Program-made: the position numbers and the translations under genes
The notes under the pieces: model-generated
What the model was told of the DNA's origin: nothing
Seen by the model: the letters and a program-made list of their open reading frames with translations, nothing else
Databases searched by the model: none
DNA from: an uncultured Phycisphaeraceae bacterium
GTDB taxonomy: Bacteria; Planctomycetota; Phycisphaerae; Phycisphaerales; UBA1924
NCBI GenBank assembly: GCA_964577425.1
Contig: CAZNZC010000003.1
Span: 73,803 to 137,802 of the forward strand
Direction: 5' to 3'
Length of the DNA: 64,000 nt
Shown: piece by piece, positions 1,389 through 59,769 of the stretch
How the letters are laid out: every line of letters begins with the position of its first letter
Numbering within the stretch: the stretch's first letter is position 1

Positions 1389-1947
1389 TTGGTAGGTCGG
1401 CACTCCGTGCCGACTCTTTGTATTGGTGGCACAGGCGTCCCGCCTGTGCGGGCTGGCTTTGCACAAGCGGGACGGCTGTGCCAGCAAAGACCGGGCTTCG
1501 GGCTGTGCCCGAACGGGGGGGCAGGATGCCCCCCGCTCCGGGATACGGAAAGCGGCACAGGCAGGTGCCTGTGCCGCCGGAGGAGAAGCAAAGAGAAGGC
1601 CCGGCTCGCCCCCCCCGTCGAGCCGGGCCGCCAAGGCCGTGTGGGCGTTCCGCAAAAACGGAACTCCCATACCCCTTCGTGCGTCTGAGAGGCCCCAACC
1701 CCGCCACGATCTTGGAGATTTTTTGCTGGTGGCGTCAATAAGCCGGGTTTGTTCGGGTGGGTTTTGGTGGTTTTAGCTTTGGTGGCCCGGCTCGTGGGGC
1801 CGACTTCCAATCGGCCTCGGGGGGCAGGATGGCCCCCGCTCAGGGGATGGGGGGAGGGAGGGGATGGCCGACTGCAAGTCGGCCCCACGGGGGGCGGGGA
1901 ACCCCACGATTCGGGGACTCATCGTGGGCGTGACCTTGGAATCCGCA
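1389..1947. repeat. Gene-free array of concatenated hairpin modules (REP-A, REP-B and at least six other stem-loop types)
   Basis: Hairpins seen: GTAG+GTCGGCAC-TCC-GTGCCGAC (1392-1414); GCACAGGCG-TCC-CGCCTGTGC (1429-1449); TTCGGGC-TGT-GCCCGAA (1497-1513); GGGGGGGCA-GGA-TGCCCCCC (1515-1534); GGCACAGGCA-GG-TGCCTGTGCC (1554-1575); GGCCGACT-GCA-AGTCGGCC (1866-1884); CCCACGAT..ATCGTGGG (about 1903-1928). All ORFs here are translations of repeats that recur elsewhere. Confidence 0.85.
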
Positions 1948-2922
1948 TCACTGGAGCCTGCGGAGCAGGAGCTTGTCCGCCCGCAACCACGCCAGGGCGA
2001 TGCCCGCTCCGACCAGCCCGACGGCGGCCTCGGTGACGGAGACGAGCAGGATGCCGGTCAGCAGCGCGTCCCGCTGGGTCTCGGCCGAGGCCAGCCCCGC
2101 CCCGACGGCCATGCCCAACGCCCCGGCCTCGCGCGTGCCGACGGTGCCGAAGGGGCTGACGACCCCGACCACGAAGAACGCCATGCCGATCAGGACGGCC
2201 TCCTCGCCCGTGAGCGGGACGCCGAGGATGCGGGCGGCGATCCAGAAGCGCAGGCCGAAGCCGAGGATGTCAAGGATGCGGGCGATGGTGGTGGACCAGA
2301 CGGCGTGGGTGTCGCCGCCCATCGAGGCCCCGCCGTGGAGGCGTTGGAACCACTCGCGCCCGGCGATGGGATCGGGCAGGCCGAGGCGTTTCATGCGTTC
2401 GAGGCCGCGGGGGCCGCGGACGAGGCGCGCGGTCTGCCAGGCGACGGCGTGGGCGGCGGCGATGGCGCACGCGATGACGAACCACCACCAGCGCCCCGCT
2501 CCCTCGGGCCGGGCGAAAGCCAGCCACATGGGCGCGATCGTGACCACGGTGAGCACGGCCACGACGATGAACCACGCGCCGATGGTCAGCGTGTGGACGC
2601 CGTCACGCCGGTTGTGGATCAGCCAGCGGGTCAGGACGCTGATCTTGAACGGAAGATAGCTGAGAAAGGTGGCCAGCGCATTGACGGCCACCGTGTCGGA
2701 CAGGCGCAGCCGGTGCAGGGGCCGGATGGCCGACCAGAAGATGAAGCCGTTGAGGAAGATACTCGCCGCCGCCAGGCCGAGCAACGCGAGGATCTGCCCC
2801 GCCCCGGCCTGCTGCACCTTCTCCAGCGCGGCCTTGTTCTCGTCCGACATGACCACGCGGACGCACCAGACGAGCAGCGCGATCCCGATGCCGAAGCCGA
2901 GGAGTTGGACGGCGATGCGCAC
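1948..2922 (-). CDS. Polytopic membrane protein, UPF0104 / lysyl-PG-synthase-TM (flippase-like) family candidate
   Basis: This is the C-terminal, hydrophobic part of the 1262-aa track ORF (about 8 predicted TM segments, RIAVQLLGFGIGIALLVW...). The start is placed at the in-frame GTG at 2922 and is uncertain. The rest of the 1262-aa ORF is out of frame with the real gene at 3006..5204. Confidence 0.5.
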   Translation of the reverse strand: MRIAVQLLGFGIGIALLVWCVRVVMSDENKAALEKVQQAGAGQILALLGLAAASIFLNGFIFWSAIRPLHRLRLSDTVAVNALATFLSYLPFKISVLTRWLIHNRRDGVHTLTIGAWFIVVAVLTVVTIAPMWLAFARPEGAGRWWWFVIACAIAAAHAVAWQTARLVRGPRGLERMKRLGLPDPIAGREWFQRLHGGASMGGDTHAVWSTTIARILDILGFGLRFWIAARILGVPLTGEEAVLIGMAFFVVGVVSPFGTVGTREAGALGMAVGAGLASAETQRDALLTGILLVSVTEAAVGLVGAGIALAWLRADKLLLRRLQ

Positions 2923-8249: not shown

Positions 8250-9626
8250 TTACGGAGGAGATTGGGATCTTGTCCCCTCATAAAGATCAAAGCTCAACAA
8301 CCGACACTCGATGCTGCCGTTGAGAAACGCCCGCCGCCGCCCGGGCTTCAGCCCGATCCGCTTGGCCAGATGCGGACTCCCTGTGAACACATGCCCGGTC
8401 CACCCCGCGCACTCCCGCTTGAAGAAGTCCCCGATGGCGGCATAGGTCGCTTCCAGTTCGGCCGCATCGCCCATCCGCTCGCCGTACTCGGGATTCAGGA
8501 TGATGTGCCCCGTAGGTCGGCACTCCGTGCCGACTCTTTCTTTCTCCGACACGGAGTGCCGCTCTCCAACAGTCGGCACGGAGTGCCGACCTACCGGCAG
8601 CGGTGTCTTTCGAAAATCACACTCAACAAACCGGATCAGATGCTCCACCCCCGCGGCCTGAGCGTTCTTCCTCGCGGCATGAATCGCCCCCGGATCGTGG
8701 TCGCTGGCGACAATGGTAGGTCGGCACTCCGTGCCGACTCCTCTTGGTACATCGGCACTCCGTGCCGATTCTTCTCCCGATTGTCGCTCCGATTGCCGCT
8801 GCTTCGAAGATGTCGGCACGGAGTGCCGACCTACCCTGCGGCGAACGCCCTGCCACAACTCCCCCACATCCCAGTTTGTTTTCGTGATCGCATAGTCCGA
8901 CCGCAGCAACCCCGGCGCCCGCCCTGCCGCGATCAACGCCGCCTCGATCGCCAGCGTCCCCGCCCCGCACATCGGATTCACCAGCGGCGTGGTTCCATCA
9001 AATCCCGCCGCCAGCAGCACCGCCGCCGCCAGCGTCTCCCGCATCGGCGCCGCATGGGGCAGATGCCGATACCCCCGGTTGGACAAAGACTGCGCATTGA
9101 TATTCAAAAACACCGCGGCCCGGTCATCCTTCCAATACAGACTCAGCACCACCCCCCGCCGCTCCGGCCCGGCGTCGGGCCGAGCGCCGGTCTTCCTGAC
9201 CATCCGATCGCAGATCGCGTCCTTGACGACCAGGGCCGGATACATCTGGTTGTCGATCGTGGGCGTGTCGGAGGACGCCCGGATGGTGATGTAGCCGCCT
9301 TGGGAGGGGATGAGATCCTCCCACGGATACGCCGCGATCTCTTTGTAGAGCGCCTTGGGCGACGGGCAGCGGAAGCGGGCCAACTGCCACATGACATGGG
9401 TGGCGGTGCGCAGCCGCAGGGCCAGCTCCATCGCCTGCTCCAGCGTGGCCCCGACCTGGAGGTAGGTCGGGTGCTCCTCCTGGAACTCGGTCCCTTCCCG
9501 CCCCCAGCCGAACGCTTCCAACTCGGCCCGGAGAATGGGCGCGGTATGCGGAGCGCAGGTGATGCGGGTGGACGAGCGTTTGGTGGGGGGAGGGGGCACG
9601 GGTAGGGAAGGATAGGGATCGGCCAT
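8250..9626 (-). CDS. THUMP-domain class I SAM-dependent RNA methyltransferase (RlmL/RlmK N-domain-like, COG0116)
   Basis: 458 aa with an N-terminal THUMP-like region, SAM-binding PMCGAGTLAIEAAL and motif IV NPEYGERMG. The ATG at 9626 overlaps the upstream stop (TGATG). The CDS carries two in-frame repeat inserts. Confidence 0.8.
   Translation of the reverse strand: MADPYPSLPVPPPPTKRSSTRITCAPHTAPILRAELEAFGWGREGTEFQEEHPTYLQVGATLEQAMELALRLRTATHVMWQLARFRCPSPKALYKEIAAYPWEDLIPSQGGYITIRASSDTPTIDNQMYPALVVKDAICDRMVRKTGARPDAGPERRGVVLSLYWKDDRAAVFLNINAQSLSNRGYRHLPHAAPMRETLAAAVLLAAGFDGTTPLVNPMCGAGTLAIEAALIAAGRAPGLLRSDYAITKTNWDVGELWQGVRRRVGRHSVPTSSKQRQSERQSGEESARSADVPRGVGTECRPTIVASDHDPGAIHAARKNAQAAGVEHLIRFVECDFRKTPLPVGRHSVPTVGERHSVSEKERVGTECRPTGHIILNPEYGERMGDAAELEATYAAIGDFFKRECAGWTGHVFTGSPHLAKRIGLKPGRRRAFLNGSIECRLLSFDLYEGTRSQSPP
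8512..8595. repeat. REPIN-like inverted doublet of REP-A inside the methyltransferase CDS
   Basis: GTAGGTCGGCACTCCGTGCCGACTCT (8512-8537) faces GTCGGCACGGAGTGCCGACCTACC (8572-8595), with a degenerate copy between them. Encoded peptide: VGRHSVPTVGERHSVSEKERVGTECRPT. Confidence 0.9.
8713..8834. repeat. Second REPIN-like REP-A cluster inside the methyltransferase CDS
   Basis: REP-A (+) at 8713-8737, a variant at 8748-8769 and REP-A (-) at 8810-8834. Encoded peptide: GRHSVPTSSKQRQSERQSGEESARSADVPRGVGTECRPT. Confidence 0.9.
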
Positions 9627-18832: not shown

Positions 18833-18897
18833 GGTGGCACAGGCGTCCCGCCTGTGCGGGCACTTCTAAGAAGCACAGGCGGGACGCCTGTGCCACC
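18833..18897. repeat. REPIN-like perfect inverted doublet of REP-B
   Basis: GGTGGCACAGGCGTCCCGCCTGTGC, then a 15-nt spacer, then GCACAGGCGGGACGCCTGTGCCACC. Lies between the convergent fliS and holB genes and may act as a bidirectional terminator. Confidence 0.9.
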
Positions 18898-18933
18898 ATT
18901 TGCACCATACCCTGACTTCAGGCGTGATCCGCA

Positions 18934-26230: not shown

Positions 26231-26244
26231 TCCGTTTTCTTGTG

Positions 26245-26297
26245 GGGCCGAGTTGCACTCGGCCTTCTGACGGAAGAGGCCGAGTGCAACTCGGCCC
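26245..26297. repeat. Inverted doublet of a GGCCGAG hairpin module inside the atp operon
   Basis: GGCCGAGTTGCACTCGGCC (26245-26263) and its reverse complement GGCCGAGTGCAACTCGGCC (26279-26297), separated by a 15-nt spacer. Lies between atpF and atpH. Confidence 0.85.
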
Positions 26298-26319
26298 TAC
26301 GGAACTACCGGAGACGACG

Positions 26320-30352: not shown

Positions 30353-32341
30353 TCAGCGCCGGTCGAACAGGCGTTCCAGCTCGGCGATGGTCAGGCGCAC
30401 GGTGGTGGCCCGGCCGTGCGGGCAACTGCCGGATCGCTCCACGGTCTCGCGCAGGCGCATCAGCTCGTCCATCTCGTCGTCGCTGAGCCGGTCGCCAGCC
30501 TTGACGGCGGCCTTGCAGGCCATCATGTCCAACACCTCGTGCAGAGCCTCCTCGCTGTCGGGTGTGAAGCCCTCCTCAACGGCCCTGTCCAGAAGTTCTT
30601 CGACAAACGCGCCGGGTTCCACGCCGCGGGAGACCAGGAACGAAGGCACCGCCCGCACGCCGACCGAGCGTGGCCCAAGCGCCGCGATCTCGAAGCCGAG
30701 CCGATCGAACAGCGGCGTGAGTTCCTCCAACGCGCCGACCGTGTCCCGGTTCGACTCGATCACGATGGGCGTGAGGAGTTGCTGGCGTTCCAGCCCCCCC
30801 GCCCCCCCGCCCCCCCCGGAGCCGGTCACGCGGGCCAGCAGTTTTTCGAACATCACGCGCTCGTGCAGGGCGTGCTGGTCGATGATGACCACGCCGTGCG
30901 CGTCCTGGGTGATGAGATAACTGGAGTGAACCTGCAAGACCCGATCGGCCGGACGGACACGCGGCATCTCGCCGGTCGGCACCCCGTGCCGACGCTCTTC
31001 CTCACCCCACTCACCCCACCCCCCCCCCGCGAGCGCGCCCGGCACCGGCTCGTCCAGCACGCGGCGGATCTCCTCGCGCAGGCGTTCCGGCTCCTCGGTC
31101 TCCGGCGTCTCCGGCGTGGGCCGCGCCCGGAGAAACTCGACCAGCCGGTCCACCTGCTGCTCCACCGGCACGGGCGGGCGGGCGGCCCCGGGATACGACG
31201 GCGGCAGGATCGCCGTTCCCCCACCCCCCCCACCACTCCCAAAGCCGGACCCCAGCCCCGGCAGGCGCTGCAACGCCGTCGGCGTGACATCGGCCTTGCG
31301 GAGCGCATCGCGCACGCCGTGGTAGATCGCCCGGTGGACCATCGACTGGTCGCGGAACCGGACCTCCAGCTTGGCCGGGTGGACATTGACATCCACCGCG
31401 CCGGGCGACATCTCGATCATCAGCACGGCCGTGGGGTGCCGCCCCGGCTCGATCAGCCCGCGGTAGGCCTCGCGCAGGGCGTGCTGGACCGTGCGGTCCC
31501 GGATGGTGCGCCCGTTGAGGAACAGGTGCTGGGCCTTGGCCGTGGCGCGGGCGATGGACGGCAGGCCGACAAGCCCCCAGACCAGCACGCCGCGGTCGTC
31601 GCCCATCCGATCGACGGACACTTCCAGCAACTGCCCGTCGAGTTCCTTGCCGAGGATCGCCAGGGCGCGATCGCGGGGGGTCTGGTCCGGCGGAAGATCC
31701 AGCCGGGCCGTGCCGTCGCACACGCAGCGGACGGCCAGCGCGGGGTGGGCCATCGCCAGGTCCTTGATCCAGTCGAGGCAGCGGGTCTGCTCGGTGCCGG
31801 GCGTGCGGAGGAACTTGCGCCGCGCCGGGGTGTTGAAGAAGAGATTGCGAACCTCGACCGTAGTGCCCACCGCCCGCGCGGCCGGGCGCGGCTCGGCGGC
31901 GTGGTCGCCCTCCACCGAAATCTCCCGTCCCTCCGCCTCGCCCCGGGCACGCGACAGGATGCGCAGGCGGGACACCGAGGCGATCGACGCCAACGCCTCC
32001 CCCCGGAATCCCATCGTGCCGATCCGGTCGAGGTCGTCGGCCGCTTGGATCTTGCTGGTGGCGTGCGGGGCCACGGCCAGGGGCATCTGGTCCGGAGGAA
32101 TGCCGTGGCCGTCGTCCGAGACGCGGATCAGTTCGACCCCCCCGCCCTCCAGGTCCACCACGATGCGGGTCGCGCCGGCGTCGATGGCGTTCTCCACGAC
32201 CTCCTTGACCACGGAGGCCGGGCGCTCGATCACCTCACCCGCGGCGATCTGATTCACCAGCAGGGTGGGCAGCCGCCGGATAACGGCGCGCGGCGGCGCA
32301 TCGGTCGGGGCGGACGCCGGGATGGTCCCCTCCGTGGGCAT
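30353..32341 (-). CDS. mutL: DNA mismatch repair protein MutL
   Basis: GHKL ATPase N-domain (LVNQIAAGEVIERPASVVKEVVENAIDAG, GFRGEALASI) and a C-terminal dimerisation domain. ATG at 32341; the alternative start is 32365. The linker contains a REP-A-like hairpin and G-runs. Confidence 0.9.
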   Translation of the reverse strand: MPTEGTIPASAPTDAPPRAVIRRLPTLLVNQIAAGEVIERPASVVKEVVENAIDAGATRIVVDLEGGGVELIRVSDDGHGIPPDQMPLAVAPHATSKIQAADDLDRIGTMGFRGEALASIASVSRLRILSRARGEAEGREISVEGDHAAEPRPAARAVGTTVEVRNLFFNTPARRKFLRTPGTEQTRCLDWIKDLAMAHPALAVRCVCDGTARLDLPPDQTPRDRALAILGKELDGQLLEVSVDRMGDDRGVLVWGLVGLPSIARATAKAQHLFLNGRTIRDRTVQHALREAYRGLIEPGRHPTAVLMIEMSPGAVDVNVHPAKLEVRFRDQSMVHRAIYHGVRDALRKADVTPTALQRLPGLGSGFGSGGGGGGTAILPPSYPGAARPPVPVEQQVDRLVEFLRARPTPETPETEEPERLREEIRRVLDEPVPGALAGGGWGEWGEEERRHGVPTGEMPRVRPADRVLQVHSSYLITQDAHGVVIIDQHALHERVMFEKLLARVTGSGGGGGAGGLERQQLLTPIVIESNRDTVGALEELTPLFDRLGFEIAALGPRSVGVRAVPSFLVSRGVEPGAFVEELLDRAVEEGFTPDSEEALHEVLDMMACKAAVKAGDRLSDDEMDELMRLRETVERSGSCPHGRATTVRLTIAELERLFDRR
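30974..30999. repeat. REP-A variant inside the mutL linker
   Basis: GGTCGGCACCCCGTGCCGACGCTCTT. On the coding strand it translates to EEERRHGVPTG. Confidence 0.75.
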
Positions 32342-32416
32342 GGACGATTCTACGCACCCCTTCACTTCCCGCCCCCTCGGCCCGGAACCGGGGCCGCTCC
32401 CCCACTACGATGGGCC

Positions 32417-35420: not shown

Positions 35421-35546
35421 CGGGCGATGCTACGCGGGCCGGTTTCCTATGATGCCCGTGGCCCGGTGGCCCGGCTCGCCGAGCCGGGTCTCTTGATCCG
35501 GGAAAGAAGAACCGGCTCGGAGAGCCGGTCTACCTAAGGAGTCGGC

Positions 35547-38626: not shown

Positions 38627-38815
38627 CCCCCGTCGTGCCTGCGACGGGGGCGGTTGGATTTTTGGTAGGTCGGCGCTCCGTGCCGGCTCTTTCTCTGACG
38701 CTTTGGGCCTGCTTCGGGGGAAAGGGAATCCGCCGATTTCATCGGCGGCGTCACGGAGGCGAACCGCTGGTCGCCCCGCGGGGCGAACACAGGCGGGACG
38801 CCTGTGCCACCACAG
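38627..38815. repeat. Mosaic hairpin array (including REP-A and inverted REP-B)
   Basis: CCCCCGTCG-tgcctg-CGACGGGGG (38627-38650). REP-A variant GGTAGGTCGGCGCTCCGTGCCGGCTCT (38664-38690). CCGCCGAT-TTC-ATCGGCGG. The palindrome TCGCCCCGCGGGGCGA. REP-B (-) at 38788-38812. Confidence 0.85.
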
Positions 38816-57306: not shown

Positions 57307-57431
57307 CGACAAGCCGCGACTGCAAGGGAGCGGCCGCGGCTCTTGGTAGGTCGGCACTCCGTGCCGACTCTTCCCCCAGTGACCGGCTCACCACGCAAAC
57401 CCGGCCGCTCCCTTGCAGTCGCGGCTTGTCG
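57307..57431. repeat. Composite element: D module, REP-A, inverted D module
   Basis: D (+) at 57307-57335, GGTAGGTCGGCACTCCGTGCCGACTCT at 57345-57371, D (-) at 57403-57431. Lies between the convergent trpD and kinase genes. Confidence 0.9.
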
Positions 57432-57432
57432 A

Positions 57433-59769
57433 TCAGGGGGCGTAGCCGTTGCCCGCCAGCACGCGGACGAACTGCTCGGGCGCGTGCTTCCACCCCAGGC
57501 GGGTGAAGAACCGGTCGGTCACCAGCACGGCCCTTGGCTCGGCTCCGCCATCGGGATCGGGGGCAATGAACAGCACGCCGTCGAACGGCCCCCCCTCACC
57601 CCCGCCCAGCCAGGCGCGGGCGCGCACGGGCAGCTCGTCGGAGTCGATCGGCACGCTGCCGCGGTCGCGGCGGAGGGCGGCGATGAGTTCGATCATGCCC
57701 GCGTCGTCCGAGCCGGTCAGGTCGCCGAACAGCTCCGCGCCGCTGCGCTCGATGCGCGACAGGCCGTCGAGCACGCCGGCGCGGGTCTCCGCGGAGAGCG
57801 GCAGCGTCAGGTCCGACACGACCAGCAGGGTGGCCTGGACCGTGCGGCTCTCACCGGCCGCGAAGGAAGGGGCCGGGGGGAACGGCGGGAGCGGGCGATC
57901 CGGGGCGGCGAGCGATCCCGTGTCCGGGAAGATGGTCGTGCCCGGGAACGGGGACGAGCCTTCGGGCAGGGCCGCGTGCGGCGGCTCGATCCCGCCCGGG
58001 CCGTCCTTGAGCTGGCCCTTCGAGACGAGCACAAACGCGACGATCCCCAGAGCGAAGACCACCGCCAGCCCGAGGAAACCCGCGAGCACCACGCCCGCCC
58101 CGGGGGAGTTGCTGTAGCTCGGGTGCGTGCCGCGCCGTCCGGCGATGCGTTCGTGGGCGGACATGCGCCGGGCGCGGGCGCGCGCCCGGGCCTCGCGGAC
58201 CTGGTCGGCCGCGCTGCGCCGGCCTTCGACAGGGGTCAGCGGGCGGCGCCGGAACGCCGGCGCGGGCGGAACCGGCGCCCGTCTCCCCCCCGCGGGCTGC
58301 GGGCGGCCCGCGACGCTGTACCGCCCCGACCACCAGTCGGACACCGTCAGACGGGGACGGCCCGCCGGAACGGGCGGCGGAGGCGGGATCGGGGTGCCGC
58401 GCGGCGTGGGCGCGCCGATGGGATCGAAGGGCTGCGGGGCGGGCGGGGGGGCGGGGTCGAATCCGGCGGAGCCGCCGCCGACGGAGGGCAGGTCCACGGG
58501 CTTGAGGCGGAAAGGGTCGGGCGCATTGCGCACGACGCGCAGGTCGGCGAGCATCTCGGCCGCGCTTGCGTAGCGCCGGTCGTAGTCCGTCATGGCGCGG
58601 CGGACGATCCAGCGCAGGGCCTCGGGGCATCGCTTGGTCGTCTGGCTGAGACCGCCGTGGGCGGGGAAGGAGTTCTCGATCACGGAGAACAGGACCGCGC
58701 CGGCGGCGTAGATGTCGAACCGGGAGCCGTCGATCTGGTGGACCTTCACGCCCCGCAGCGCCTGACGGACCAGCTCGGGATCGCGGAAGTATTCGGTGCC
58801 GTGGGTGGTCAGCGTCATGGCCGACCGCAGCGGCGTGACCAGACCGAAATCGACGAGGTGTGCCCTGTGGTCGTGCGCGTCCACGATGATGTTGTCCGGC
58901 TTGACATCCTTGTGCCACAGGCCGGCGCGGTGGTAGGCGTCCAGCGAGGCGACGAGGTCGCAGGCGTAGCCCAGCGCGGCGGACAGACGCCGGCCGTCCA
59001 GGCCCTCGGCAGGAGATTCGGCGTGCAGACGCTGCGTCACCACGGCCAGCGAATCGCCGGGCACATACCGCATGACATAGAAGAACCGTTCGGGCGTCAG
59101 CTCGTGCTCAAGCACCAGGCCGAGCTTCTTCGCGGCGTCGAGCGCACGGGACTCACGCACGATCTGCGGCAGGCTGGACCCGTCCTTGAGGCTGAAGACC
59201 TTGATGACCACGCGGTCCACATCGGCCAGACCCTGCCGGGCGAAGCCCGCCCGCTTGATCGCGTCCGGCTCGGCGATGTACAGGCGGCTGCCGGACCCCC
59301 CGCCCTGCAACGACCCGACGATCGAGTAGCCGTCGAACTGCCCGGCGCGCCCGGCGGGCTTGTCCCTGCCCGGGGCGGCGGCCAAGGCCTGCGGCACGCG
59401 CTGCTCAATGCCCTCGAGCGCGGTGCCCAGCCCGAACAGGCGGGCCGGGTTGCCCACGAACACGCGGTACGCCGCCGTCCCGGCCGCGGTCATCTCGGAC
59501 CAGAACGCGCCGGCGAAGTGGCGCGAGGCCGACCACCGCCCGATCACGATGTTCAACAGCACCAGCGGCGCGAACAGCAGCCCCGACAGCACCGCCCCCA
59601 CGAACCGCAGCGTGTCCCCGATCTCCGACCCGATGAACCGGAAGATGTTGCCCAGAACCCGCCAGCCCAGCCCGAAGAGCTTGGCGAACAGAAAGATGAA
59701 CGCGGCCAGCAGGAAGGGGATGGCCAGGACCCCCAGGATCATCAGCGGCACTGTGACGACGCCGTTCAT
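57433..59769 (-). CDS. Membrane-bound Ser/Thr protein kinase
   Basis: 778 aa. N-terminal TM segments, Hanks kinase core (VIKVF, HKDVKPDNIIV, VDFGLV, GTEYFRDPE), a second TM segment and a C-terminal domain. Confidence 0.85.
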   Translation of the reverse strand: MNGVVTVPLMILGVLAIPFLLAAFIFLFAKLFGLGWRVLGNIFRFIGSEIGDTLRFVGAVLSGLLFAPLVLLNIVIGRWSASRHFAGAFWSEMTAAGTAAYRVFVGNPARLFGLGTALEGIEQRVPQALAAAPGRDKPAGRAGQFDGYSIVGSLQGGGSGSRLYIAEPDAIKRAGFARQGLADVDRVVIKVFSLKDGSSLPQIVRESRALDAAKKLGLVLEHELTPERFFYVMRYVPGDSLAVVTQRLHAESPAEGLDGRRLSAALGYACDLVASLDAYHRAGLWHKDVKPDNIIVDAHDHRAHLVDFGLVTPLRSAMTLTTHGTEYFRDPELVRQALRGVKVHQIDGSRFDIYAAGAVLFSVIENSFPAHGGLSQTTKRCPEALRWIVRRAMTDYDRRYASAAEMLADLRVVRNAPDPFRLKPVDLPSVGGGSAGFDPAPPPAPQPFDPIGAPTPRGTPIPPPPPVPAGRPRLTVSDWWSGRYSVAGRPQPAGGRRAPVPPAPAFRRRPLTPVEGRRSAADQVREARARARARRMSAHERIAGRRGTHPSYSNSPGAGVVLAGFLGLAVVFALGIVAFVLVSKGQLKDGPGGIEPPHAALPEGSSPFPGTTIFPDTGSLAAPDRPLPPFPPAPSFAAGESRTVQATLLVVSDLTLPLSAETRAGVLDGLSRIERSGAELFGDLTGSDDAGMIELIAALRRDRGSVPIDSDELPVRARAWLGGGEGGPFDGVLFIAPDPDGGAEPRAVLVTDRFFTRLGWKHAPEQFVRVLAGNGYAP

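Follow-up and report, generated by a model that had tools for sequence, protein, structure and literature searches.

In the 64-kb stretch of contig CAZNZC010000003.1 analysed here (the window, from an uncultured Phycisphaeraceae bacterium), a gene for an RlmL-like RNA methyltransferase contains two clusters of a short palindromic repeat, both of which are read in frame. By its sequence the repeat is a repetitive extragenic palindrome (REP) of the GTAG type. It is likely that the two clusters are recent REP insertions of the type that depends on REP-associated tyrosine transposases (RAYTs), and that they are tolerated as disordered loops of a methyltransferase that probably still functions. The two segments are derived and have the anatomy of a REP, the family is linked to a RAYT in a relative, the sites are loops, and the gene is otherwise intact; from these observations we infer RAYT-mediated mobilization in this genome, retained activity of the enzyme and neutrality of the inserts.

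The open reading frame (ORF) of the methyltransferase, 8250–9626 on the minus strand, runs through both clusters without interruption, as the initial annotation had claimed. The peptide VGRHSVPT is found at the start and VGTECRPT at the end of each cluster, so the mirror pair is read twice in the same frame. Insert B is located downstream of the PMCGAGT block and insert A directly upstream of NPEYGERMG, which confirms the placement between methyltransferase motifs. Two clusters are indeed present; however, their codon bounds are 8511–8594 and 8715–8834, rather than 8512–8595 and 8713–8834 as given before. Inverted copies lie at the ends of each cluster as described, but an inner, degenerate third REP (8545–8561 and 8747–8769) had not been listed. 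The coordinates of all the units are given in Table 1.

Table 1. Host gene, inserts and REP units in the window, and genes of related genomes that contain the REP in frame
Feature	Position	Strand	Details
Host gene CDS (coding sequence)	8250..9626	minus	458 aa; THUMP + UPF0020 class I S-adenosylmethionine (SAM)-dependent RNA methyltransferase
Insert A	8511..8594	minus	84 nt, 28 codons, residues 345–372, peptide VGRHSVPTVGERHSVSEKERVGTECRPT
REP unit A1	8512..8534	plus	GTAG-GTCGGCAC-TCC-GTGCCGAC, exact
REP unit A2	8545..8561	minus	inner, degenerate, headless core CGACACGGAGTGCCG
REP unit A3	8572..8594	minus	exact; inverted to A1, heads outward
Insert B	8715..8834	minus	120 nt, 40 codons, residues 265–304, peptide VGRHSVPTSSKQRQSERQSGEESARSADVPRGVGTECRPT
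REP unit B1	8716..8738	plus	exact
REP unit B2	8747..8769	plus	direct tandem variant GTAC-ATCGGCAC-TCC-GTGCCGAT
REP unit B3	8812..8834	minus	exact; inverted to B1
Intergenic copy	1392..1414	plus	4 nt after stop codon of ORF 524–1387; second-family REPIN follows
mutL copy	30975..30993	plus	core with 1 mismatch, no GTAG head; mutL = 30353–32365, minus
Intergenic degenerate copy	38665..38687	plus	2 mismatches; between convergent genes
Intergenic exact copy	57346..57368	plus	between convergent genes
In-frame REP hosts, related genomes			L012 ThrRS (thrS); L014 LeuRS (leuS); L022 SucD; L025 UvrB
In-frame REP hosts, related genomes			L020 SdhA-like flavoprotein, doublet GRSALRADTSSGMSARSADLP; L028 NadE; L050 carboxyltransferase

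Measured from GTAG to CTAC, cluster A spans 83 nt (8512–8594) and cluster B spans 119 nt (8716–8834). The GTAG heads point outward in both, and each cluster is composed of two exact outer copies and one degenerate inner copy. The arms 8512–8534 and 8812–8834 form one inverted repeat of 23 nt with 100% identity, and the arms 8715–8738 and 8812–8835 form one of 24 nt, also with 100% identity; between 8509–8538 and 8568–8597, the identity is 93% over 30 nt. In unit B2 the stem pairing was kept because the first and the last stem bases changed together. Units B2 and B3 are separated by a 42-nt spacer. The spacer of cluster A shows no relationship to that of cluster B, and neither is related to the doublets at the other fetched loci. 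Each cluster is stop-free in two of the three frames in either orientation; the closed frame is the one in which the GTAG head is read as TAG. The encoded peptides are hydrophilic, with 5 of 28 (insert A) and 4 of 40 (insert B) residues being hydrophobic; they are rich in Ser, Thr, Gly, Pro and charged residues, including 5 and 7 Lys plus Arg, respectively.

The core of the repeat, GTCGGCACTCCGTGCCGAC, is found without mismatch at 1396, 8516, 8572 (minus), 8720, 8812 (minus) and 57350, and near copies are located at 8751 (two mismatches), 30975 (one) and 38669 (two). It gave 16 strand-hits, compared to 0.15 expected from shuffled sequences, and 16 hits were reached in no shuffle. Altogether, 10 REP units at 6 sites are present in the 64 kb. 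A GTAG-headed palindromic repeat dispersed in the window and arranged as inverted doublets, as proposed initially, was thus recovered, with both exact copies and inverted arms. Taken over 57 copies (the window and 47 loci of other genomes), the consensus reads G-GTAG-GTCGGCAC-TCC-GTGCCGAC-(T/G)C(T/C)T: a conserved G precedes the GTAG head, which is followed by one 8-bp GC-rich stem (GTCGGCAC/GTGCCGAC) closed by the 3-nt loop TCC. All four outer intragenic units carry the GTAG head, as do the copies at 1392, 38665 and 57346; the copy in mutL lacks it. Published GTAG-type REPs have a short GC-rich stem of 5–13 bp and a small loop, which the 8-bp stem matches, and judged by these features the repeat belongs to that class (PMC3733652).

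The exact 23-mer was found at 47 loci of about a dozen Phycisphaerales metagenome-assembled genomes (MAGs), with 1–8 exact copies per MAG among the fetched loci. The repeat is not confined to extragenic DNA: 7 of the 10 units of the window lie within CDSs, as do at least 8 of ∼53 exact copies in the related MAGs. The latter number is a minimum, since a copy was counted as coding only if it was spanned by an ORF whose G+C at third codon positions had a coding-like pattern. The initial annotation had described the repeat as otherwise intergenic, which does not hold even in the window. The headless copy in mutL is in frame and is read as RHGVPT; it falls in the linker that joins the ATPase/transducer domains to the C-terminal domain, with Pfam matches on both sides. 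One exact 23-mer is carried by a contig binned as Lysobacteraceae (JANJTY010000451.1), whereas the other matches are from Phycisphaerales/Planctomycetota; this is probably due to a binning error or a transfer.

In one relative the family is associated with a transposase. At locus L014 (MAG CoA8_V101), two inverted, heads-out 23-mers, 1985–2007 (plus) and 2629–2651 (minus), surround one ORF that matches the RAYT model NF047646 (86.7 bits, cutoff 80) and PF01797. Its best match in the PDB is E. coli TnpA-REP (4ER8), and it contains both the HUH motif (PDHVHWIV) and the Tyr motif (RYVVRNP). Because the same 23-mer flanks this RAYT, the REP family is tied to a RAYT. Such a REP-flanked RAYT (REPtron) was seen in this related genome only; protein searches for the RAYT family returned five distant matches and no further REP-flanked copy, and scanning of metagenomes returned the same locus and distant RAYTs without this REP.

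Two inverted REPs that fold into one long hairpin are known as a REPIN. Like REPINs, the window clusters can form long hairpins, with perfect 24-bp outer stems, and all the doublets that we saw are in heads-out arrangement. However, among the window and the fetched loci the spacers of the window clusters are unique; judged by sequence, the clusters are REPIN-like in shape but are not recognizable as copies of one replicating doublet. Five loci of the SJ514 genome (L007, L018, L021, L026 and L046) carry one 100-nt heterodimer, which is composed of a GTAG-GTCGGCAC unit, a 54-nt spacer and a GTGG-GTCGGCGC unit. The spacer is conserved at at least five SJ514 loci, and the copy in STL-PLA9 (L023) has the same length and a similar sequence; within the window and the fetched loci, a doublet with conserved spacer occurs in these two genomes only. 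The SJ514 doublet is a true REPIN; among the forms of this family, it is the strongest candidate for one that is actively copied.

The derived state of both segments was revealed by alignments of 21 and 118 sequences, in which the named homologues come from Phycisphaerales and Planctomycetota MAGs. The inserts are absent from all 117 homologues, the outcome anticipated for insertions in the initial annotation, and the REP peptides occur in the window protein only. The same alignments rule out the refuting case named there, namely that the segments are ancient conserved protein sequence unrelated to the repeat. The closest orthologue, P0002 (88% identity over the aligned columns), is encoded at a syntenic locus, L001, where the methyltransferase gene is followed by tsaE, exbB and exbD; the host gene has the same neighbors, and no second methyltransferase copy was found in the 64-kb window. 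L001 reads ...MPAHPGHIIL... at the site of insert A and ...RARVKKSGGTGGAPVSADSVPPIIAS... at that of insert B. The insert A site is also empty in L003, and the insert replaces a 3-aa loop located directly before β4 and NPEY; at the insert B site, the closest relatives have KKSGGTGGAPVSADSVPP instead. Loop A is 3 aa long in 77 of the 118 sequences, and with 28 aa that of the window protein is the longest. Loop B is most often 14 aa long (58 of 118), and the 42 aa between R262 and I305 of the window protein make it the third longest. The genome of L001 (CAZXGL01) carries the same REP elsewhere (L006, L032, L040 and L049). Compared by sequence, the window and L001 therefore represent the filled and the empty state of a site, respectively, in two related species that both carry the element. 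All four outer copies match the consensus at 23 of 23 positions despite a dS of 0.58 to the nearest orthologue, which suggests that the insertions are recent.

The initial annotation had called the host RlmL-like, and our searches agree. The UPF0020/RMKL-like methyltransferase domain (PF01170) was matched with 125.8 bits (E 2.2e-36, cutoff 22.3), whereas the Pfam match to THUMP is weak (17.7 bits, cutoff 20.6). The THUMP fold is seen in the AlphaFold2 model, which was built from the alignment of 118 homologues and has a mean predicted local distance difference test (pLDDT) score of 88 and a predicted template modeling score (pTM) of 0.87. The top Foldseek match of the model is 3V97 (E 1.8e-31, TMq 0.76), and 3V97 and 3V8V, both of E. 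coli RlmL, are the nearest solved structures by sequence. With the RlmKL model NF008748 of NCBIfam, the protein aligns only within the first 386 positions (5–386 of 704) and reaches 265.9 bits, short of the 466 bits set as the equivalog cutoff. In family features, motif I, the acidic β2 residue and the NPxY motif IV are all present; G221/G223, D309 and N378–Y381 are invariant in the homologue alignments. By similarity, the protein is RlmL-like, corresponding to the RlmL (m2G2445) half of RlmKL, and this substrate is putative only. Like E. coli RlmL, which is the N-terminal half of RlmKL/YcbY, it combines THUMP and class I methyltransferase architecture with a PMCGxGT motif I, an acidic β2 end and NPxY. 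Different from E. coli RlmL, the window protein stands alone, without the RlmK half, and there are no REP inserts in E. coli. The phmmer alignment of the two proteins covers residues 72–263, 305–348 and 371–457, skipping both inserts exactly.

In the AlphaFold2 model, insert B (pLDDT ∼47–51) has no secondary structure; it is located between the helix that comes after motif I (residues 255–267) and strand β2 (305–309), which ends in the invariant D309, the acidic residue of motif II. Insert A (pLDDT ∼57–60) is modeled as coil and ends one residue before strand β4 (374–377); next to this strand comes motif IV, with the invariant N378-P-E-Y381. Modeling had been proposed as a check on whether the inserts fall in loops; both are found in low-confidence coil, before β2 and β4, respectively. 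In the class I methyltransferase fold, SAM and the substrate bind at the C-terminal ends of β1, β2 and β4. The loops entering β2 and β4 should therefore lie on the opposite edge of the sheet, a placement that we infer from the order of the secondary structure elements and from textbook class I topology.

Loop B has also taken up other repeats. In P0007 (L003 3001–4290) and P0011 (L052 143–1411), it contains a hairpin, (CC)CTCCCG...CGGGAGAGGG followed by CCGGGGTGAGGG, which encodes GEGRGEG peptides; judged from their peptides, P0003, P0005 and P0014 have the same type of hairpin. In P0009 (L051 1992–3314), loop B contains a GTGG-GACGGGCT-TCC-AGCCCGTC REP with the peptide TGFQPV, and the peptide of P0008 points to the same. 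That three unrelated repeat families are found in loop B suggests that the loop is simply permissive. Loop A of P0009 has a different insert, of 24 aa, which is built from a direct repeat of GATCCCGGCTCGGCG. One repeat of the orthologues, GGGAGAGGG, is absent from the window. The L003 contig also encodes a RAYT (2334–2849, minus; NF047646, 94.5 bits), which lies ∼150 nt upstream of the P0007 methyltransferase gene and is flanked by palindromes of its own, CGTGCTCTTCG.CTTCGAAGAGCACG, at 2223–2248 and 2869–2894.

We propose the following course of events. The GTAG-type REP is the kind of short hairpin that HUH/Y1 RAYTs recognize and move as single-stranded DNA, and two clusters of it would recently have inserted into two loops of a housekeeping RlmL-like gene. 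The insertions would persist because three filters were passed. First, the net change in length would have to be a multiple of three. Second, the frame used would have to avoid the sole stop-containing frame, in which the GTAG head gives TAG. Third, the loops at the N-terminal ends of β2 and β4 would have to be permissive. The insert peptides themselves are most likely disordered passengers without function of their own.

The REP is also found in other genes. Seven genes of related Phycisphaerales MAGs contain exact copies in frame, flanked on either side by stretches that have Pfam or PDB matches (Table 1). In L012, L020, L022, L025, L028 and L050, they are singles or short heterodimers with a GTCGGCTC variant. 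In leuS, a complete REP-RAYT-REP unit of ∼667 nt is in frame (L014 1985–2651, JAJTHN010000004.1), giving rise to a 227-aa insert between the positions that match residues 529 and 532 of T. thermophilus LeuRS. The rest of this LeuRS is intact, including the HIGH-type and KMSKS-type motifs. The unit is also present at L053 2816–3482 (JGI Ga0209972_10000014), and the 5.6-kb leuS region is 100% identical in the two contigs, which are unequal in size and come from different assemblies. A limited full-text search of the literature found no precedent for a RAYT embedded in frame in a host gene.

It is unlikely, though less so than the other alternatives, that the gene has recently been inactivated; the clusters would then have disrupted folding or expression, and the open frame would be a leftover that has not decayed yet. 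Open frames are cheap at the 69% G+C of the window. Not only are two of the three frames of each cluster stop-free, but the antisense strand of the whole gene is open as well, so the open frame of the methyltransferase is weak evidence. The antisense ORF (8262–9605, plus) has 447 codons; its G+C content peaks at codon position 1 and not 3. It is a shadow ORF and exemplifies the low weight of open frames in this genome. Relaxed constraint would also fit two insertions in one gene, the loss of loop residues, the abutment of insert A on β4 and NPEY, and the number of unique amino-acid changes, which is 12 on the window branch and 4 on the P0002 branch in a small sample.

However, both net length changes are multiples of three, which has a probability of ∼1/9 by chance; this is the informative point on frame. 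All 58 invariant columns of the 118-sequence alignment are kept in the window protein. Among the 147 columns with ≥90% conservation, it retains 143 and deviates at 4, all conservatively, which is comparable to the insert-free relatives (1–8 deviations). dN/dS between the window gene and P0002 is 0.14, at a dS of 0.58 (Nei-Gojobori). These constraint data favor a functional gene. Moreover, the inserts are located exactly in the two most variable loops of the family, and the same REP is in frame in the essential genes thrS, leuS and sucD, which counts against inactivation because inactivation there would be lethal. Judged from sequence conservation and the model, the enzyme is probably still active.

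Several observations nevertheless weigh against tolerated RAYT-type insertions in a working gene. In addition to the mild excess of changes on the window branch, inactivation by a very recent insertion is undetectable by dN/dS and residue conservation, and only 5 residues lie between the end of insert A and the catalytic NPEY motif. Expression could be reduced by the GC-rich stems of the mRNA, which are perfect over 24 bp. The ancestral loop residues (17–18 aa in loop B, 3 aa in loop A) are missing from the aligned sequence and not split, so each event was an insertion combined with deletion or replacement of a few codons. Since these residues are missing, and since the elements are 83 and 119 nt long (both 3n+2) with ambiguous boundaries, neither an exact insertion junction nor a target-site duplication was definable at either of the two clusters. 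Given the unique spacers, nothing indicates that it is the doublets that move as a unit, and a tblastn search with the L014 RAYT gave no RAYT in the 64-kb window.

We regard it as improbable that the hairpins have been co-opted, either for tuning at the RNA level (ribosome pausing, RNase III cleavage or mRNA stabilization) or for contacts of the charged peptides with RNA. Extreme stability is predicted for the RNA hairpins: with outer stems that are perfect over 24 bp, cluster A reaches −69.2 kcal/mol (z −9.6) and cluster B reaches −79.6 kcal/mol (z −9.4). The outer copies are perfectly conserved, the Lys and Arg residues of the inserts might contact RNA, and hairpins of REPs and miniature inverted-repeat transposable elements are known targets of endoribonucleases and modulate the expression of flanking genes (PMC3733652). 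On the predicted folds, ribosome pausing or RNase III cleavage could plausibly carry a cost. However, the inserts occur in no relative, and there is therefore no sign of selection for them; recency explains the perfect stems equally well, and loop B accepts three unrelated repeat families, which speaks for tolerance rather than specific function. No U-tract follows the hairpins on the sense strand and the only terminator-like match is antisense, so an intrinsic terminator in the gene was rejected. Nor was any Rfam family found above threshold; the sub-threshold matches are to miRNA precursors (33 bits, gathering score 98), as is typical of long hairpins. The two alternatives raised in the initial annotation, recent inactivation and regulatory RNA hairpins, gained no positive support from the present data.

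A more far-reaching idea, which is speculative and in our view doubtful, is that the REP/RAYT system of this clade has shifted to a gene-invading lifestyle, with the permissive loops of essential genes serving as safe harbors. The methyltransferase inserts would then not be accidents, and the frames of the element (5 of 6 open, hydrophilic) would have been shaped for translation. If true, the leuS REP-RAYT-REP unit would be translated as an internal domain of an essential enzyme and be protected from loss, since no deletion other than a precise one would be viable. The unit would thus persist like an intein, without splicing.

We give almost no credence to ancient protein sequence that merely resembles the repeat or to an assembly artefact at the repeat, although the contig is of metagenomic origin and the protein is the only member of its cluster. 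No homologue has the segments, which effectively refutes the ancient version, and dispersed copies with 23/23 identity to their DNA are present both in this genome and in others. On either side of each cluster the sequence goes on with the same gene and frame, a result not expected from collapse or chimerism, and the comparable in-frame leuS case is reproduced in two differently assembled contigs.

With regard to the intergenic copies of the window, the REP at 1392 and the next 16 nt, TCTTTGTATTGGTGGC, which are the start of a second-family REP, are identical between window positions 1392–1441 and L040 6745–6790, the latter from the genome that encodes the closest orthologue. The two sites may be orthologous, or a composite of two REP families may have been conserved. 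A larger inverted repeat, perfect over ∼29 nt (CAAGCCGCGACTGCAAGGGAGCGGCCG ... CGGCCGCTCCCTTGCAGTCGCGGCTTG) and extending over 57308–57433, has the copy at 57346 in its loop. The window contains at least three further REP families with a GT(A/G)G head, an 8-bp stem and a 3-nt loop, CACAGGCG-TCC-CGCCTGTG, GGCCGAST-TGC-ASTCGGCC and a CCGGCTC type (1426–1486, 13561, 18834–18918, 38788–38810; 1866–1888, 26242–26300; 35466–35533). Several of them form inverted doublets; all are apparently intergenic or in 5′ leaders, and none was convincingly coding inside the window genes.

The window offers a clean filled- versus empty-site case of a transposase-dependent REP colonizing coding sequence in the Planctomycetes–Verrucomicrobia–Chlamydiae (PVC) superphylum, and it shows positions of the class I methyltransferase fold that accept 28–40 extra residues. 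For annotation, REP-derived segments of Phycisphaerales proteins can be recognized by peptides such as VGRHSVPT, GTECRPT, RSALRAD and SARSADL, and alignments and phylogenies should be made with these masked. With three repeat families in loop B and the REP in several essential genes, ‘extragenic’ is a poor word in this clade; the spread of REPs here may be limited mainly by what proteins tolerate. The leuS REPtron merits a separate study.

The initial annotation had described protein-coding insertions of mobile hairpins as unusual. They are rare, but they have been documented, both for the Rickettsia palindromic elements (RPEs) and for intragenic GTAG and CGTC REPs (PMC3733652, PMC3184786). 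In-frame fusions of repeats with genes have been reviewed from Ogata et al. 2000 onward (Delihas 2011, PMC3184786). In several species, REPs tagged by GTAG or CGTC were found within genes (Di Nocera, De Gregorio and Rocco 2013, BMC Genomics 14:522, PMC3733652). They are most numerous in Opitutus terrae, of the PVC superphylum, and in R. conorii, where they equal RPE-4 and RPE-6. They occur as singles, dimers or groups, encode 20–30 aa (43–82 aa for clusters), and are sometimes found twice per ORF; the hosts include uvrA/uvrB, tRNA synthetases, helicases and methylases (PMC3733652). Being placed within flexible linkers or loops, they were proposed to be neutral, and the GTAG class is associated with RAYT genes (PMC3733652).

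Like those GTAG-REPs, the window element has a GTAG head and a GC-rich stem-loop, is in frame, and occupies two sites of one ORF. In addition, the second family of the window, GTGG-CACAGGCG-TCC-CGCCTGTG, yields GTGVPPV, a peptide listed for O. terrae GTAG-19 (PMC3733652). Different from the earlier cases are the sequence family and the RlmL-like host gene: GTCGGCAC-TCC-GTGCCGAC is not in the supplementary files of that study, and Phycisphaera is mentioned neither in its main text nor in its supplements. Also different from that study, the inserts are placed here by the empty sites of orthologues and by a structure model.

RPEs, in the accounts of Ogata et al. (2000) given in PMC3184786 and PMC3733652, are palindromic mobile repeats that are tolerated in frame in many unrelated housekeeping genes. 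Judged by those accounts, the window clusters share with RPEs in-frame palindromic insertion and translation as tolerated extra peptide segments; unlike the window element, RPEs as described there are AT-rich, ∼105–146 bp long and confined to Rickettsia, with no sequence relationship to it. RPE-4 and RPE-6 are classed as CGTC-type, a class for which no dedicated transposase has been found (PMC3733652). The window element is GC-rich and GTAG-headed and has a Phycisphaerales host; it is not an RPE and only behaves analogously. REPINs, which were described as extragenic (Bertels and Rainey 2011, PMC3116915), have in common with the present system two inverted REPs that form one long hairpin, and the REP-flanked RAYT, seen here in the relative L014. 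Unlike them, the window clusters have unique spacers and one extra inner unit, and are located within a CDS. Taken together, the event is not new in kind; what is new is the sequence family, the host clade and the host gene. The evidence for empty sites and for structural placement is better than in earlier work on intragenic REPs, and the leuS REP-RAYT-REP unit is the most unusual by-product.

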